Below, in pieces: positions 14,222 to 59,259 of a DNA stretch of 64,000 bases. The translations under genes and the position numbers were made by a program. The DNA lies in assembly GCA_045126495.1 (NCBI GenBank), contig JBGVON010000052.1, positions 4,516 to 68,515 of the forward strand, written 5' to 3'. The stretch's first letter is position 1; each line of letters starts with the position of its first letter. The notes under the pieces were generated by a model. The model was not told the origin of the DNA, searched no databases, and saw nothing but the letters and a program-made list of their open reading frames with translations. The stretch comes from Faecousia sp. (GTDB taxonomy: Bacteria > Bacillota > Clostridia > Oscillospirales > Oscillospiraceae).

Positions 14222-15220
14222 ATGGGCTTTGTCAGCTTTGCTTTACAGGGCAATTATAAGCGCTTTTATGGCGATCTGAAAGAACTGTCGAAAAAGGTGG
14301 GCAAGCCTGCATGGTTTATGTTTTTGGATACCGCCGTCTGTGCGTTGCGGTACGGCTCCGGTTTGCAGGATTATCTGAATTTTGGGTTTTATGAAAAAAA
14401 GCATGCCCAACGAAAGAACTATGTGAGCGTGAGCTATCTGGATAAGACCATCACCCGCCTGTCCAATATCAAGTGGTCACCTTATATCTCCAATAAGACC
14501 AATTTTCACAAGAATTACGGCCAGTACACCCGCCGGGATTTCTTTGATCCTGATGGAGGATACGAGGCATTTGAAGGATTTTTGAGCCGTAACCCCGTGT
14601 TTATTTATAAGCCGCAGATCGGTCAATGCGGTGATGGCGTTGCCAAAATCGTTACGGCTGAGATTTCGGACAAAAAGGCTTTTTATAATGAAGCCATAGA
14701 GAAGAAGGCGTGCTTGGAAGAATTGGTAGTGCAACACCCGGACTGGGAGGCGCTGTGCCCCGGTTGCGTGAACACCATGCGGATTATCACCGGCGCGGCA
14801 AAGGGTCAGTCCTGGCTGCTGTTCGCTGCTACAAGAGTCGGTTCCGGTAAGGGTGTGGCGGATAATTTCCACATGGGCGGCAGCGCGGTGCTGATCGATA
14901 TGGAGACGGGTAAGCTTACCGGTAACGGTATCGATAAGAAGCTTAATGAGCATACTCACAGCGCCACCGGCATTCTTTATGACGGCTATCAGGTTCCTTA
15001 TTGGGAGGAAATCAAGGCGTTGTGTCTGGAAGCGGCGCTGGTGAATGACCAGATCCATTTTGTGGGCTGGGATGTGGCGGTGACCCCTGATGGTCCTTTG
15101 CTCATCGAGGGTAACCGTGGTTCCGGCTTTGACCTGCCCCAGGTGCTGGCAAAGCGCGGTTTGAAGGATATGCTGGAAGAGCTGACCGAAAAAGTAGAGG
15201 CTCTGGAAAAGGAAAATTAA
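14222..15220 (+). CDS. Sugar-transfer-associated ATP-grasp domain protein
   Basis: NKTNF, YKP..G.CG.GV, LEE..VQHP, NTMRI, DNFH.GG, GWDVAVTPDGP.LIEGN. GAGGAGG RBS favours ATG 14222. Confidence 0.72.
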   Translation: MGFVSFALQGNYKRFYGDLKELSKKVGKPAWFMFLDTAVCALRYGSGLQDYLNFGFYEKKHAQRKNYVSVSYLDKTITRLSNIKWSPYISNKTNFHKNYGQYTRRDFFDPDGGYEAFEGFLSRNPVFIYKPQIGQCGDGVAKIVTAEISDKKAFYNEAIEKKACLEELVVQHPDWEALCPGCVNTMRIITGAAKGQSWLLFAATRVGSGKGVADNFHMGGSAVLIDMETGKLTGNGIDKKLNEHTHSATGILYDGYQVPYWEEIKALCLEAALVNDQIHFVGWDVAVTPDGPLLIEGNRGSGFDLPQVLAKRGLKDMLEELTEKVEALEKEN

Positions 15221-15225
15221 ATTAG

Positions 15226-15260
15226 ATTCTGCCGTCCGGAAACGTCCCGGACGGCAGAAT
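15226..15260. terminator. Hairpin after the hslO operon
   Basis: ATTCTGCCGTCCGG-AACGTC-CCGGACGGCAGAAT, a perfect 14-bp inverted repeat (end coordinates approximate). Confidence 0.7.
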
Positions 15261-15313
15261 TACACACCCATTAAAATTCCCAAAAAATCCAAAGAAAAAA
15301 ACGAAAAAAGTGC

Positions 15314-15342
15314 TTGACAAAACTGGGTTCAATGTGTATAAT
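15314..15342 (+). promoter_or_regulatory. Consensus SigA promoter of the tRNA operon
   Basis: TTGACA-17 bp-TATAAT with upstream A tracts (UP-element-like). Confidence 0.9.
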
Positions 15343-15383
15343 GAACCACGTCGCTGAGGTGCGTAGCACGGCAGCAAACGTAC

Positions 15384-15459
15384 GGGAGCATAGCTCAGCT
15401 GGGAGAGCATCTGCCTTACAAGCAGGAGGTCACAGGTTCGAGCCCTGTTGTTCCCACCA
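15384..15459 (+). tRNA. tRNA-Val(TAC)
   Basis: 76-nt cloverleaf, anticodon loop CTTACAA, T-loop TTCGAGC, encoded CCA. Confidence 0.97.
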
Positions 15460-15464
15460 TATTT

Positions 15465-15541
15465 GGCCCGGTGGTGCAGTCGGTTAGCACGCCAGCCTGT
15501 CACGCTGGAGGTCGACGGTTCGAGTCCGTTCCGGGTCGCCA
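15465..15541 (+). tRNA. tRNA-Asp(GTC)
   Basis: 77-nt cloverleaf, anticodon loop CTGTCAC, G73, encoded CCA. Confidence 0.97.
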
Positions 15542-15578
15542 CATAACTTTGAGCAGAGCACTTGCTCTGCTCATATAT

Positions 15579-15654
15579 GCCTCTGTAGCTCAGTTGGTAG
15601 AGCAGTGGACTGAAAATCCACGTGTCGTTGGTTCGATTCCGACCGGAGGCACCA
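15579..15654 (+). tRNA. tRNA-Phe(GAA)
   Basis: 76-nt cloverleaf, anticodon loop CTGAAAA, encoded CCA. Confidence 0.97.
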
Positions 15655-15768
15655 CATAATTCTTGGTTCCTGAATTGGAATCGAAAGGCGGCTCTTGGCA
15701 ATATGCCGGTGGCATATTGCAACCGCCGTGGCTTTTCCGCAGAAAAGCGATTCCGACCGGAGGCACCA
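15655..15768 (+). repeat. tRNA-Phe-linked mirror element (114-bp period)
   Basis: 15748-15768 is an exact copy of tRNA 15634-15654 (C56 to CCA). 15664-15685 is a decayed antisense copy of the tRNA 3' end. Internal hairpins at 15698-15720 and 15732-15747. Confidence 0.88.
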
Positions 15769-15807
15769 CTTTTCTAAGCATAGGTCCTTGTGTACAGGGG
15801 CCAATAT

Positions 15808-15883
15808 GCGGGTGTAGCTCATCTGGTAGAGCGCCACCTTGCCAAGGTGGAGGTAGCGAGTTCGAGCCTCGTCACCCGCTCCA
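15808..15883 (+). tRNA. tRNA-Gly(GCC)
   Basis: 76-nt cloverleaf, anticodon loop TTGCCAA, U73, encoded CCA. Confidence 0.97.
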
Positions 15884-16021
15884 ATTATTTAACCCGAGCC
15901 AATGGGCTCGAAAGATATGATCCAATAGTCCTGTGGACTGTTGATCGCGACGGCTTGACGGAGCGATTCCGTAATTTTGCGTTAGCAAAAAGCAAACGAG
16001 CCTCGTCACCCGCTCCAATTA
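15884..16021 (+). repeat. tRNA-Gly-linked mirror element (134-bp period)
   Basis: 15997-16021 is an exact 25-nt copy of 15863-15887 (C56 to CCA plus ATTA). Antisense GGCTCGAA at 15905-15912. Hairpins at 15923-15943, 15946-15965, 15975-15990. Confidence 0.88.
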
Positions 16022-16060
16022 AATAGGATAGGAACGCTTAGCGTTCCTGTTTTCATAAAT

Positions 16061-16135
16061 GGTACCGTGGCCAAGCGGTAAGGCAAGAGTCTGCAAAACT
16101 CTCATTCCCCAGTTCAAATCTGGGCGGTACCTCCA
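16061..16135 (+). tRNA. tRNA-Cys(GCA)
   Basis: 75-nt cloverleaf, anticodon loop CTGCAAA, U73, encoded CCA. Confidence 0.97.
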
Positions 16136-16172
16136 AAAATAACGGATACCCATTTGGGTGTCCGTTATTTTT
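16136..16172. terminator. Bidirectional terminator after tRNA-Cys
   Basis: AAAATAACGGATACCC-ATTT-GGGTGTCCGTTATTTT, with A and T tracts on both sides. Confidence 0.8.
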
Positions 16173-16298
16173 ATGTATGTCCAGATTTGAATAATGTAAA
16201 TGCAACGCGGACGAGCGTTGCCCGCACCGGCTGGACGGTGCGGAACCTTAATTTTTGCCTTTGGCAAAAATGCAAACAAATCTGGGCGGTACCTACCA
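16136..16298 (+). repeat. tRNA-Cys-linked mirror element (162-bp period)
   Basis: 16277-16294 is an exact copy of 16115-16132, followed by ACCA. Antisense ...CCAGATTTGAA at 16172-16191. Hairpins at 16202-16221, 16222-16243, 16252-16270. Confidence 0.88.
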
Positions 16299-16355
16299 AA
16301 ATCTCGCATGTGTTAGTGAATCACAACTTATTGGGAGAAACGTGCAGAGCTTTTT

Positions 16356-17501
16356 CTATTTTTGGTATGATACGCGGCGGTCTTCTTCTTGATAGGGTGC
16401 TTCCGGTCCGGTTTTGCAGAATAGACTGTAAAGCCGTTCTGCCCGGGATTCCAAATCCTGATATGGGTGTTCAACAGGTGCGCCTGCGTTGGGGAAACAC
16501 CCTGTTTCTCGGGCAATTTTTAAGATCTGCCGACCGGTATCGTTAAAAGCCAGAACGCGCGCATAAGGGGCAGGGGAGGTGATATCCTTTTCTGTGATTC
16601 CTAAAAACGCGCACATCACCATCCGGTCCAGCCGGGTTCGGGTGTAACGCTTGGATTTGGTAGCATTCAAGATGTTGGAAAGGGTACTCTGGGTTCTGGC
16701 GTTGCGCATCAGTTTTCGCCAAAGTCCCTCACTGCCGTAGGGCAGGGATTCAAATTCATTGTCTGTCATGGTACGCAGTCGGTATAGTATCGCCTGCTCG
16801 CCGAAGGGCAGATCGTGGAGGGGCGCACCGGAAAAAATCGATCTTGCATCTTCCGGCACATACGCAAGCCAATCTCTGTCGGAAAGCATGCTGTTTCTTA
16901 TGGCAGTGGCGGAGGGATTCTCGGAGTCAATGACCTGATCGTGATACCCTCCGTTTCGCTGAATGACCATTGGCTCCATGGGAACACCCGATTGCAGAAT
17001 CGCCTTGCAATACTCAGTTGCCAAAATATCATTGGGGTGAGTAAGGGTATCTGTATCAAGGCCCATTGCTTTCAGCGCGGCTAGCCTTGCAGCAGGAAAA
17101 GATTGCCCCTTGTCCAGTTCAACCCGCAGCATTTGGGGAAATGTGGGATCCAGTAGCGCCCTTGCGGTGTAAAGCAACGTATCTTCGTTACCACTTTCCG
17201 CGCCAAAACACAATCGTTGACAGAATCCGCCAAGAATCCGCACCCCTTCCCTGGCAAAGCCTTCGGCAGAGGAAAGCGCGGCTGTGATGGGTAATTCCAG
17301 CACCAGATCTGCACCGCATAGGATTGCAGCCCGTGCACGAAGAGATTTATCAATAATGGCGGGCATACCCCGCTGCACATAATTTCCACTCATCAGACAC
17401 ACAATACCGCCATCAGGATCAGCGGATTTTACTGCATCTAATTGCTTTTTGTGTCCCGCGTGCAGGGGATTATACTCACAAATAATGCCTGTGACCTTCA
17501 A
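16356..17501 (-). CDS. tmcAL: tRNA(Met) cytidine acetate ligase (HIGH-type nucleotidyltransferase)
   Basis: GIICEYNPLHAGH, MSGNYVQRG.P, PNDILA.EY, SATAIR, SKRYT.TR. TTG start after AGGAGG. Adjacent to ackA. Confidence 0.85.
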   Translation of the reverse strand: MKVTGIICEYNPLHAGHKKQLDAVKSADPDGGIVCLMSGNYVQRGMPAIIDKSLRARAAILCGADLVLELPITAALSSAEGFAREGVRILGGFCQRLCFGAESGNEDTLLYTARALLDPTFPQMLRVELDKGQSFPAARLAALKAMGLDTDTLTHPNDILATEYCKAILQSGVPMEPMVIQRNGGYHDQVIDSENPSATAIRNSMLSDRDWLAYVPEDARSIFSGAPLHDLPFGEQAILYRLRTMTDNEFESLPYGSEGLWRKLMRNARTQSTLSNILNATKSKRYTRTRLDRMVMCAFLGITEKDITSPAPYARVLAFNDTGRQILKIARETGCFPNAGAPVEHPYQDLESRAERLYSLFCKTGPEAPYQEEDRRVSYQK

Positions 17502-20822: not shown

Positions 20823-21593
20823 TCAATAGTATTTCACGCAATCGCTGTGGGTTTCCGAGATTTTTACTTCTAAATCGGGGAATGCATGAGCAATTTTTTT
20901 AGCCAAAACCGTTACCACCGGATTTTCTGTTGGAAAGTGACCGGCATCAATGAGATTCAGTCCCAGCTCTTTGGCATCGCAAAACTGGTTATATTTCACG
21001 TCAGCGGTGATAAAGGTATCGCACCCGGATTGCAGCACTGCGGCAATTTCAGAGCCGCAGGCGCCGCCGCCCACCGCAACACGGCAAGCCTGCCGACCGC
21101 CGCTGACGTACCGCAGACCTTCGCAGTTCAGGGCGCTTTTTATATGGGCAAGAAAGGTATCAAGACTTTGGGGTTCGATTTCACCTTGCCGCAGAAACCC
21201 CGCTGGATCTTGGGGGATCTTTTGAATTGCGGTTAAGCCCAAACGTTCTGCAAGCGTGTCATTGACACCGCCGTCCGCGCAGTCCAGATTGGTATGGGCG
21301 TTGACAGCGGCAATGCCGTTTTTGATCAGGGTCATCACTGCGCAACCGGTGGTCGTATCACAGGTAATGGCAGTTAAAGGCTGAAAAATCAGAGGATGGT
21401 GCGTCACCAGCAGGTCTGCACCTATTTCTGCAGCTTCCCGGCATACATGGTCAAAGGGATCAAGGGCAACCAGAATTTTGCGGACTTCCTGACCGGCGCA
21501 TCCGCAAAGCAGACCGACGTTATCCCAGTCACATTTTAAGTTCTGGGGGGCAATGGTTTCTAAAAAATGCAATATATCCTGCACTTTGGTCAT
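20823..21593 (-). CDS. Nif3-like dinuclear metal centre protein
   Basis: WDNVGLL, THHPLIF, HTNLD, GGACG, DAGHFPTE. Confidence 0.92.
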   Translation of the reverse strand: MTKVQDILHFLETIAPQNLKCDWDNVGLLCGCAGQEVRKILVALDPFDHVCREAAEIGADLLVTHHPLIFQPLTAITCDTTTGCAVMTLIKNGIAAVNAHTNLDCADGGVNDTLAERLGLTAIQKIPQDPAGFLRQGEIEPQSLDTFLAHIKSALNCEGLRYVSGGRQACRVAVGGGACGSEIAAVLQSGCDTFITADVKYNQFCDAKELGLNLIDAGHFPTENPVVTVLAKKIAHAFPDLEVKISETHSDCVKYY

Positions 21594-58995: not shown

Positions 58996-59033
58996 AAAGA
59001 CCGCATTTGTCCAGATAGACAAATGCGGTCTTT
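58996..59033. terminator. Bidirectional terminator between glyA and the tRNA-Ala locus
   Basis: AAAGACCGCATTTGTC-CAGATA-GACAAATGCGGTCTTT, a perfect 16-bp stem. Confidence 0.88.
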
Positions 59034-59034
59034 T

Positions 59035-59183
59035 TGGTGGACCTGATCGGATTCGTTTAATCAATGTTCGCCTCCGTCAAGCCGTCGGCGGTAACGCTCG
59101 TCCGCATTACATTTGTACTTTCGAATCCGCTCGGCACAAATATCGTACCAATAAAAGACCACCCTAAAAGGGTGGTCTTTTAT
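59035..59183 (-). repeat. tRNA-Ala-linked mirror element (149-bp period)
   Basis: 59035-59055 is an exact copy of 59184-59204 (C56 to CCA on the minus strand). Inverted T-loop copy at 59120-59129. Core 59059-59114 is 43/56 identical to 16198-16253. Confidence 0.9.
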
Positions 59184-59259
59184 TGGTGGACCTGATCGGA
59201 TTCGAACCGACGACCCCCACAATGCGAATGTGATGCGCTCCCAACTGCGCTACAGGCCC
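59184..59259 (-). tRNA. tRNA-Ala(CGC)
   Basis: 76-nt cloverleaf on the minus strand, anticodon loop TTCGCAT, G3:U70 alanine determinant, encoded CCA. Confidence 0.96.

Follow-up and report, generated by a model that had tools for sequence, protein, structure and literature searches.

Introduction

What are the short, gene-less repeats that follow several transfer RNA (tRNA) genes in Faecousia sp., and by what route could they have come to stand there? The question was raised by a 64,000-nt stretch of contig JBGVON010000052.1 (positions 4,516 to 68,515), which we refer to as the window. In it, the genes of tRNA-Phe, tRNA-Gly, tRNA-Cys and tRNA-Ala are each followed by a unit that carries an inverted and a direct copy of the 3′ end of that same tRNA. 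tRNA genes are classical landing sites of prophages and islands; here, they are occupied by a gene-less, folded module of ~ 120 bp that holds a mirror image and a spare copy of its target. Our preferred reading, held tentatively and somewhat short of probable, is that the units form a genus-wide family of non-autonomous, DNA-level modules that home to the 3′ ends of tRNA and transfer-messenger RNA (tmRNA) genes, leave the tRNA undamaged and have their arms templated from the target. If the modules are mobile, they would represent programmable, gene-sparing and site-specific insertion, in which the target is set by base pairing or self-templating and not by the sequence preference of a protein.

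Architecture and family size

The unit is protein-less, measures ~ 95–170 bp and begins directly after the CCA of the tRNA. Its parts come in a fixed order. A palindromic terminator or a short hairpin stands first and is followed by a copy of the tRNA 3′ end in antisense, by two or three hairpins that covary and, last, by nt 55/56–76 of the tRNA in direct orientation. In the window, the last 21 nt of the tRNA (C56 to CCA) were exactly recopied 93, 113, 141 and 128 nt 3′ of the Phe, Gly, Cys and Ala genes, respectively, and the spacing of these copies reproduced the periods of 114, 134, 162 and 149 (Phe, Gly-GCC, Cys and Ala-CGC) given by an earlier, sequence-only reading of the stretch. On the 5′ side of every direct copy there was an antisense copy of the T-loop and T-stem of the host tRNA, ending in ...TCGAA or ...TTGAA, together with two or three hairpins that are akin across loci. 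As that reading had stated, no copy of the tRNA end was found downstream of tRNA-Val or tRNA-Asp, no open reading frame (ORF) lay inside the units, and no integrase adjoined them; the flanking genes encode Hsp33, an ATP-grasp protein, a TmcAL-like HIGH-NTase and acetate kinase, which are housekeeping functions with no recombinase among them. The repetition itself was confirmed at the level of the genome, where 10 of the 43 tRNAs detected by ARAGORN are followed by an exact copy, at least 15 nt long, of their own end, far beyond chance.

The sequence-only reading also proposed a family with four copies. The family stood and the number did not: there are dozens of copies, and tmRNA is a host too. 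In the source genome (labelled G000; 1.76 Mb in 103 contigs, with the window on contig C52), a profile built from the tRNA-end copies recovered ~ 29 units, and the covariance model described below 24–27. They stand behind at least 20 tRNAs and behind tmRNA (C85); among the hosts are Thr, Lys, Val, Gly-CCC, Arg, Tyr, His, Pro, Ser and Leu tRNAs, as well as partial tRNAs on C2 and C91. Tandem pairs were observed at Gly-CCC, Arg-TCT, C37 and C65, and some units had no tRNA close by. The cores fall into three subtypes, which have a hairpin in common (GCAAC...CCGGTGG...GTTGC or GCAACGC-GGAYGA-GCGTTGC) and are distinguished by the second hairpin and by the presence or absence of a third, A/T-rich one.

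Distribution

One genome per species was scanned with a pattern, which matched at least 118 stretches, nearly all of them in metagenome-assembled genomes (MAGs) from the guts of humans and ruminants, labelled Faecousia sp., Oscillospiraceae or Clostridia. With the covariance model, units were found in 36 of 41 genomes sampled from the genus (Faecousia-like Oscillospiraceae), at 0–27 per genome; the members without units include a 97%-complete genome. The same model returned only three weak matches from 150 other genomes, representing 30 families of the order. No blastn match to a unit was obtained in the phage (50,697 records) and plasmid (72,556 records) collections, and the nine matches in IMG/VR were either host flanks in which proviral contigs end or products of chance. 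The sequence-only reading had recognised no named family, and an Rfam check (cmscan, positions 15000–17000, E ≤ 1) indeed returned only the five tRNAs and chance hits overlapping them. A published description of such units was found neither in Rfam nor in the literature searched; PMC9897764, considered as an earlier description, was set aside because it concerns archaeal tRNA fragments only. At the practical level, the partial tRNA copies confuse the annotation of tRNAs and islands and break assemblies of gut MAGs, and many copies lie at contig ends.

Fold and covariation

A 22-sequence alignment yielded a four-helix fold, in which P1 is formed by the antisense arm and the sense copy and is followed by P2, P3 and P4. 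In this alignment, 86% of cells were paired, compared to 34–47% in slid controls, and none of 500 shuffles reached the observed value. The covariance model built from the alignment was then run on 100 loci of other genomes. In 124 further copies aligned by the model, 90% of cells were paired against 36–47% in slid controls (93% in P1, 98.8% in P2 and 99.2% in P4), percentages that lean towards the model because the alignment was fitted to it. Of 29 base pairs, 26 covaried in these copies, with changes on both sides, and the size of the covariation is far beyond the controls despite the model-fitted alignment. Single-strand folds of six copies had a common cloverleaf-like shape, with z between −1.2 and −6.6. 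The homologous cores and the common covarying fold bear out the claim that the units belong to one element family.

Could the units be passive scars, that is, eroded attR-side ends of integrase-borne islands that once stood in the tRNA genes? The tRNA genes of these genomes are island and prophage hot spots, with partial tRNA copies at C2, C91, L036, L037 and L124, and some units lie 0.9–3 kb from their tRNA, with cargo in between. Nevertheless, random erosion would not leave an ordered unit with a matched arm and a homologous, covarying core at hundreds of loci and behind more than 24 types of tRNA. Moreover, the islands that we opened have their own separate repeat and stand upstream of an intact unit. 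The sequence-only reading argued that the scars of independent islands would have no structured core in common; this argument stands, and we regard the scar explanation as largely refuted and very improbable.

The covariation in all helices would also be expected of a functional structured RNA. Such an RNA would derive from tRNA read-through or operon transcripts and would act as a switch or decoy on tRNA 3′ processing or stability, or as a tRNA-like, CCA-tailed RNA; the antisense arm would pair alternatively with the T-arm and 3′ end of the tRNA itself or with the downstream spare copy. In line with this explanation, the tail ends exactly at CCA, like that of a mature tRNA, and the Phe-Gly-Cys and Arg-His units lie inside tRNA operons and are necessarily transcribed. 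The mismatches read on the sense strand show a slight excess of G·T (G·U in RNA) over A·C, 53 vs. 30. A precedent is offered by the distal 178-bp repeats of Escherichia coli tyrT, which are tandem and non-coding, each contain a copy of the tRNA 3′ end including CCA, and give RtT RNA (Rfam RF00391). No antisense arm is known in RtT RNA, nor any occurrence of it behind many different tRNAs, and the Rfam scan at E ≤ 1 gave no match in sequence or structure between the units and RtT RNA, or any other Rfam 15 family, tRNA-like RNAs and YrlA included, apart from the tRNAs and chance hits mentioned above.

On the other hand, the stems are nearly all Watson-Crick, with G·T below 1% in P2 and P4, most units are directly preceded by a strong terminator, and no conserved promoter was found. 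The near-pure Watson-Crick pairing and the terminators together suggest DNA rather than RNA; the composition of the stems resembles that of DNA palindromes more than that of typical RNA, which is not decisive. We must also note that close relatives carry between 0 and 27 copies and that the same locus may be empty, single or double, unlike what would be expected of a needed RNA. Overall, we consider a dedicated RNA function improbable.

Arms, cores and junctions

Among 85 copies with a tRNA or tmRNA upstream on the same strand, 62 begin 40–60 nt after it, and others are second in tandem. The start of the direct copy corresponds to a point 21 nt from the tRNA end in 40 of 64 copies and 22 nt from it in 13 of 64, which places it at nt 55/56 in 53 of 64 cases; the copy terminates exactly at CCA in 38 of 64. 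The arms were cognate to the host in at least 59 of the 70 first-in-line copies (at least 84%), in agreement with the proposal that the ends are tailored to each tRNA. The prediction of many tRNA targets was likewise borne out, since at least 24 tRNA types, plus tmRNA, are used across the genus.

Empty alleles of the kind that the earlier reading had in mind do exist. In eight genomes of the same genus, the Val-Asp-Phe-Gly-Cys cluster is intact and free of units behind Phe, Gly and Cys, and in G000 the ancestral spacers of this cluster come after the direct copies. The Arg(TCT)-His spacer contains 0, 1 or 2 units, depending on the species. Such polymorphism alone is no proof of insertion, because recombination between the 21-nt repeats also yields empty sites; we infer, rather than observe, that the units are mobile.

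The P1 helix is mostly 7–10 bp long and reaches 24 bp. Old copies keep only the inner 7–13 nt of the antisense arm, whereas young copies have a full-length arm starting with TGG. At L146, the arm is the perfect reverse complement of nt 56–76, and one perfect palindrome, with a stem of ~ 37 bp, runs from the tRNA 3′ end through the terminator to the arm. In 70 copies, the spacer between the tRNA and the arm (spacer X) is a palindrome spanning CCA to the predicted start of the full-length arm, with a median symmetry of 0.89 against 0.36 in the shifted control; in many copies, the likeness of the predicted outer arm to the complement of nt 66–76 is still above chance. The anatomy of young and old copies indicates that the original unit consisted of sense (tRNA end), palindrome, antisense, hairpin core and sense. 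The antisense arm is able to pair with either of the flanking sense copies. In units inside operons (Phe, Gly-GCC), the terminator is replaced by a short sense-loop-antisense hairpin.

If unit lineages were tied to one tRNA, the cores would be expected to cluster by tRNA. In a core-only tree, the tRNA label changed 59 times, compared to ~ 70 changes with shuffled labels and a minimum of 24. For 17 of 84 cores (5 expected), the nearest neighbour shared the arm type, and the mean core identity was 0.56 within an arm type and 0.50 between types, with cross-type pairs reaching 91%. The cores are thus nearly independent of the arm type, which fits target-templated arms better than inherited ones. 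Either a core passes from one tRNA to another and receives new arms made from the target, or gene conversion swaps the cores of old, fixed units.

A possible route of propagation

In the route that we propose, the module would act as DNA, in the form of a folded single strand or a cruciform, and not as a dedicated RNA. The conserved core would be copied from locus to locus, with both arms templated from the target. The junctions, or switch points, would be the terminator hairpin and the T-loop, a feature that almost all tRNA genes conserve. The complementarity of the arms may be kept or restored by intrastrand template switching (quasipalindrome correction); template switching is known to create and perfect hairpins (PMC8794818, PMC7202029). 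Units would then be duplicated, or precisely lost, by recombination between the 21–22-nt direct repeats, and as a side effect the junctions between CCA and the palindrome would become landing sites for prophages and defence islands. Templating from the target is suggested by the cognate arms, the shuffled cores, the perfect palindromes of young copies, and the finding that no enzyme tracks the units. The modules would, in this case, be parasites or commensals of tRNA genes that consist of self-folding DNA and encode no protein. They would copy themselves to any tRNA or tmRNA end via the T-loop and terminator-hairpin switch points, gaining a mirror and a spare copy, with no dedicated enzyme or with a general host one; we put this forward as possible rather than probable.

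Several points weigh against our reading. The route between loci has multiple template-switch steps and is unproven, and the T-loop microhomology amounts to only 7–11 nt. The sharp boundary of the repeat is equally expected from a T-loop-specific integrase. At L132, a whole Arg-type unit stands behind tRNA-Ser(GCT), with the junction exactly after CCA and a core 92–95% identical to those of the Arg-CCG units at L067 and L149; this exception indicates that whole units can move with non-cognate arms, in a way that resembles site-specific recombination. The Arg-TCT units have a 55-nt spacer X that is homologous between species and cores of different subtypes, so gene conversion at fixed old loci could decouple cores from arms. 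No insertion event was caught between near-identical genomes. Furthermore, the non-tandem copies of G000 are at most 91% identical to one another, and there was therefore no recent burst or activity in that genome. Finally, the slight G·T excess among sense-strand mismatches would point towards RNA, and the units between co-transcribed tRNAs must be transcribed, which leaves room for an RNA role.

Search for a helper enzyme

In another explanation, the unit is a non-autonomous integrative element moved in trans by a host or mobile-element recombinase that acts on a folded, target-mimicking site. The excised form would be a small, probably single-stranded circle, whose antisense arm pairs with its own copy of nt 56–76 and thereby mimics the T-loop/T-stem duplex of the target, in the manner of integron attC sites and the attP of the CTX phage; one crossover at T-loop position 55/56 would insert the unit and rebuild the tRNA. 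A 21–22-nt repeat that runs from the T-loop to CCA is what a T-loop-class integrase classically leaves behind, and tmRNA is a target as well. The site, a branched hairpin that is closed by an inverted repeat and whose 5′ arm often ends in ...GAAC, recalls attC. Tandem arrays, including those with cargo between units (L103), the L132 unit with its non-cognate arms, the patchy distribution and the variable copy number are all in line with a recombinase acting in trans.

No such helper was found, nor was the autonomous partner enzyme that the sequence-only reading had expected to be encoded elsewhere. As for long versions with an enzyme between the unit ends, every candidate that we opened had an unrelated island, prophage or cargo between the tRNA and the unit. 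G000 has eight tyrosine recombinase genes, none of which adjoins a unit. The best match to the integron integrase model TIGR02249 scored 82.7 bits against a cut-off of 265, and TnpB was not found. IS110 gave only a partial match in G000 and none in the high-copy genomes G006, G017, G174 and G189. Across the genus, copy number did not follow IS110 (rho 0.22, p 0.17), large serine recombinases (LSRs; rho 0.08, with 27 units and no LSR in G000) or genome size (rho −0.05). The tyrosine integrases beside units use the anticodon loop, with a 47-nt repeat of their own, and the serine recombinases are those of prophages that have inserted at CCA. Moreover, at least 24 tRNA specificities with arm-decoupled cores would demand constant retargeting, and the outer arm decays, with only 7–13 bp retained. 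Movement by a recombinase in trans is, on this evidence, possible but doubtful.

Other candidates were rejected. A retroelement with a primer-binding site (PBS) was dismissed because reverse transcriptase (RT) is absent from four high-copy genomes (no RVT_1 match in G000, G017, G174 and G189) and present in the zero-copy genome G169. The units do not qualify as miniature inverted-repeat transposable elements of a DDE transposon, given that the arms differ with each target tRNA and the repeat measures 21–22 nt and is always a tRNA end; there is no family-wide terminal inverted repeat and no short, fixed target-site duplication. An antisense-tRNA pseudogene was discarded since the region past the arm is unlike an antisense tRNA, and a minihelix or RNase P substrate mimic since the acceptor part of the arm is not conserved. 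Cutting at a TTCGAA restriction site was dismissed because non-palindromic T-loops (Cys, Phe) give the same junction.

The only Y1 gene in G000 (C31:4634–4870) is RAYT-like. It has a 159-aa frame and is flanked by gtaggggcgaactgtgttcgccc palindromes unrelated to the units; the palindromes around it (C31:4400–5000) read gtaggggcgaactgtgttcgcccctac, and the locus is a separate REP/RAYT system.

Islands, prophages and cargo at unit loci

Three groups of loci were considered as long versions of the unit and set aside. At L124 and L089, an island with genes for a 310-aa tyrosine integrase, a phiX-like Rep and an XRE protein has its own 47-nt anticodon-loop repeat and stands upstream of an intact unit. 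At L151 and on G000 C25 and C40, 0.9–1.3 kb of cargo contain no recombinase. The loci L048, L043 and L035, and a degraded copy on G000 C100, were read as prophage ends inserted at the junction between CCA and the terminator.

The L124 island (L124:4700–7560) measures 2.9 kb and lies in the anticodon loop of tRNA-Val(GAC), with a 47-nt repeat. Its genes encode an XRE regulator, a 353-aa phiX-like rolling-circle Rep (with the motifs FCTLTF, HLHGLV and YITKYVTK) and a 310-aa tyrosine integrase. The island resembles an integrative rolling-circle replicon of very small size.

The LSR genes of the prophage ends lie at L048:4942–6468 (−), L043:4515–6002 (−) and L035:11922–13742 (+), with 43% mutual identity, and the remnant at G000 C100 ~ 20900–21075. 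Their 3′ ends run into a tRNA-like ...TCACCA, ...CCCCCACCA or ...CGCCGTACCA, which is followed by the palindrome of the terminator or unit. This arrangement suggests that the LSR prophages use the CCA end of Lys, Tyr and Arg tRNA genes as their exact integration point. No tRNA-Lys gene was found in the MAG of L048 when one was sought at the other end of the prophage.

The array at L103 consists of tRNA-Tyr, unit, cargo, unit, cargo and unit, and each cargo is bounded by CCA on both sides, which points to the junction between CCA and the palindrome as a landing site for other elements. Defence-type genes were observed between the tRNA and distal units at L067:610–3703 (−), L049:1225–3385 (−) and L065:1468–2739 (+); they encode Shedu SduA, a DNA methyltransferase, an AbiEii/AAA_15 ATPase and an HNH nuclease. 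The tRNA-unit loci act as defence-island hot spots. Genome plasticity appears to be shaped by the units as well, with prophages and defence islands (Shedu, a methyltransferase, HNH and Abi-like ATPases) standing at the CCA-unit junctions.

A second, smaller kind of tRNA-end repeat was noticed after the spare tRNA-Lys end of the unit at L041:9960–10100, L037:600–700 (−) and L048:4760–4830 (−). These tandem repeats of 26–30 nt are composed of the acceptor 3′ strand, (C)CA and a small hairpin spacer, tcgcgtaagcgaaga, taagcgaagctt or gatggcgaagccataa.

Comparison with known systems

Williams reportedly showed in 2002 that islands and prophages integrate at a T-loop sublocation of tRNA and tmRNA genes by means of P4-like tyrosine integrases. 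The T-loop-class islands and their integrase-less derivatives, the cis-mobilizable elements (CIMEs), resemble our units in the direct repeat from the T-loop to CCA, the intact tRNA, the use of tmRNA and the tandem accretion. The units differ from these islands in their size (95–170 bp), the lack of an integrase or any gene, the extra inverted copy of the target, the multi-hairpin core and the presence of more than 24 targets in one family.

Integron attC sites are likewise defined by structure, as is the folded single-stranded attP of CTX-phi and of other elements that exploit Xer: inverted repeats close a variable, in some cases branched, hairpin, the fold persists as the sequence changes, and the sites occur in arrays, some of which have cargo between them. 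The units fit the attC-type description of an imperfect inverted-repeat hairpin, with P1 closing two or three hairpins. However, they miss the attC consensus RYYYAAC...GTTRRRY, as the arms vary with the tRNA (GGAATCGAA, CCAGATTTGAA) and the 3′ arm starts with CGA or CAA after GCAAA, and not with GTT. In contrast to attC and attP, the units come without IntI, their arms copy the individual target, and they are sited at tRNA genes instead of attI or dif.

The palindrome-associated transposable elements (PATEs) of IS200/IS605 and the REP/RAYT repeats are likewise gene-less hairpin elements; they work as single-stranded DNA and find their target through pairing with an internal guide. In IS200/IS605, the guide is 4 nt long and the hairpin ends are specific to the family, whereas the units have 8–21 nt of antisense and 21 nt of sense, and a cognate enzyme is missing. 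The PBS of long terminal repeat (LTR) retroelements (18 nt) recalls the young antisense arms, which also begin with TGG and are complementary to the 3′-terminal ~ 21 nt of the tRNA; unlike LTR retroelements, the units have no LTRs and an extra sense copy, and RT is absent from G000 and most high-copy genomes. We found no described element that works like these target-matched hairpin modules, which may form a previously undescribed class.

The four units of the window

Three of the units lie in the tRNA cluster Val-Asp-Phe-Gly(GCC)-Cys, located by ARAGORN at 15384–16135 (+). The first host is tRNA-Phe(GAA) at 15579–15654 (+), also matched by the Rfam tRNA model with 71 bits. Spacer X (15655–15676, +) contains GGTTCC, which pairs with the antisense arm as a short hairpin. 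The arm itself, GGAATCGAA at 15677–15685 (+), is the reverse complement of tRNA nt 54–62 and makes the 5′ strand of the closing stem P1 in the fold. The core (15686–15747, +; fold z −3.7) is of subtype C and is 91% identical to a core at another tRNA on contig C37. Its hairpins comprise a stem ggcgg/ccgcc around CAATATGCC-GGT-GGCATATTG, and then ggcttttc-cgca-gaaaagc. The direct copy of tRNA-Phe C56–A76 occupies 15748–15768 (+), and the ancestral Phe-Gly spacer comes next.

The second host, tRNA-Gly(GCC), was assigned by ARAGORN to 15808–15883 (+), and its unit, which scored 86 bits with the covariance model, spans 15884–16017 (+). The unit opens with a spacer bearing a short sense-loop-antisense hairpin, and the antisense arm GGCTCGAA follows at 15905–15912 (+). 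The core, of subtype A, is formed by P2 CAATAGTCC-TGT-GGACTGTTG, P3 cgcGACGGCTTGACGGAGcg and P4 ttttgc-gtta-gcaaaa. The direct copy spans 15997–16017 (+).

The third unit, at 16136–16298 (+), follows tRNA-Cys(GCA) at 16061–16135 (+; ARAGORN) and reached 109 bits with the covariance model and z −6.3 in the fold. It begins with a palindromic terminator (16136–16176, +), and its antisense arm is CCAGATTTGAA (16181–16191, +). The core contains P2 GCAACGC-GGACGA-GCGTTGC, P3 CCGCACCG-GCTGGA-CGGTGCGG and P4 ATTTTTGCC-TTT-GGCAAAAAT. A 1-nt insertion lies 5′ of CCA in the direct copy (16277–16298, +).

The fourth unit was found on the opposite strand, at 59035–59183 (−; covariance model, 76 bits), behind tRNA-Ala(CGC) at 59184–59259 (−; ARAGORN). 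The terminator (59147–59183, −) is followed by a decayed outer antisense arm, which begins with TGGT, and by the antisense arm CGGATTCGAA at 59120–59129 (−). The core (59056–59119, −) has no P4, and the direct copy takes up 59035–59055 (−). Beyond the unit lies a native bidirectional terminator (58996–59033).

Composite loci in the source genome

Some loci of G000 have further structured stretches next to the tRNA or the unit. At tRNA-Thr(GGT) (C88:8150–8750, L019), a different structured stretch comes first and ends in a 28-nt copy of the whole T-arm and the acceptor end. The second element there is a unit of the family, with a nested insertion of ~ 60 nt in P3 that has a CCGGTGG-loop hairpin of its own. 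Behind tRNA-Asn, at C40:130–1500, come a cargo gene of 1.2 kb, a different structured stretch rich in GC and then a spare 3′ end (catatCGAGTCC...). The 880 bp between tRNA-Ser(TGA) and its unit at C25:8000–9110 (L008) hold four AATCGTTGA repeats and an ORF for a small membrane protein. Two units without a tRNA, L010 (C87:3700–4100) and L014 (C88:2762–3107), have a common upstream stretch, which consists of a hairpin TGCAACGC...GCGTTGCA, then ttgtatcaa..cgtagtatatgCCA and a terminator, with a promoter-like TTGCAT-17-TATAT inside. This stretch is probably the decayed end of a preceding unit.

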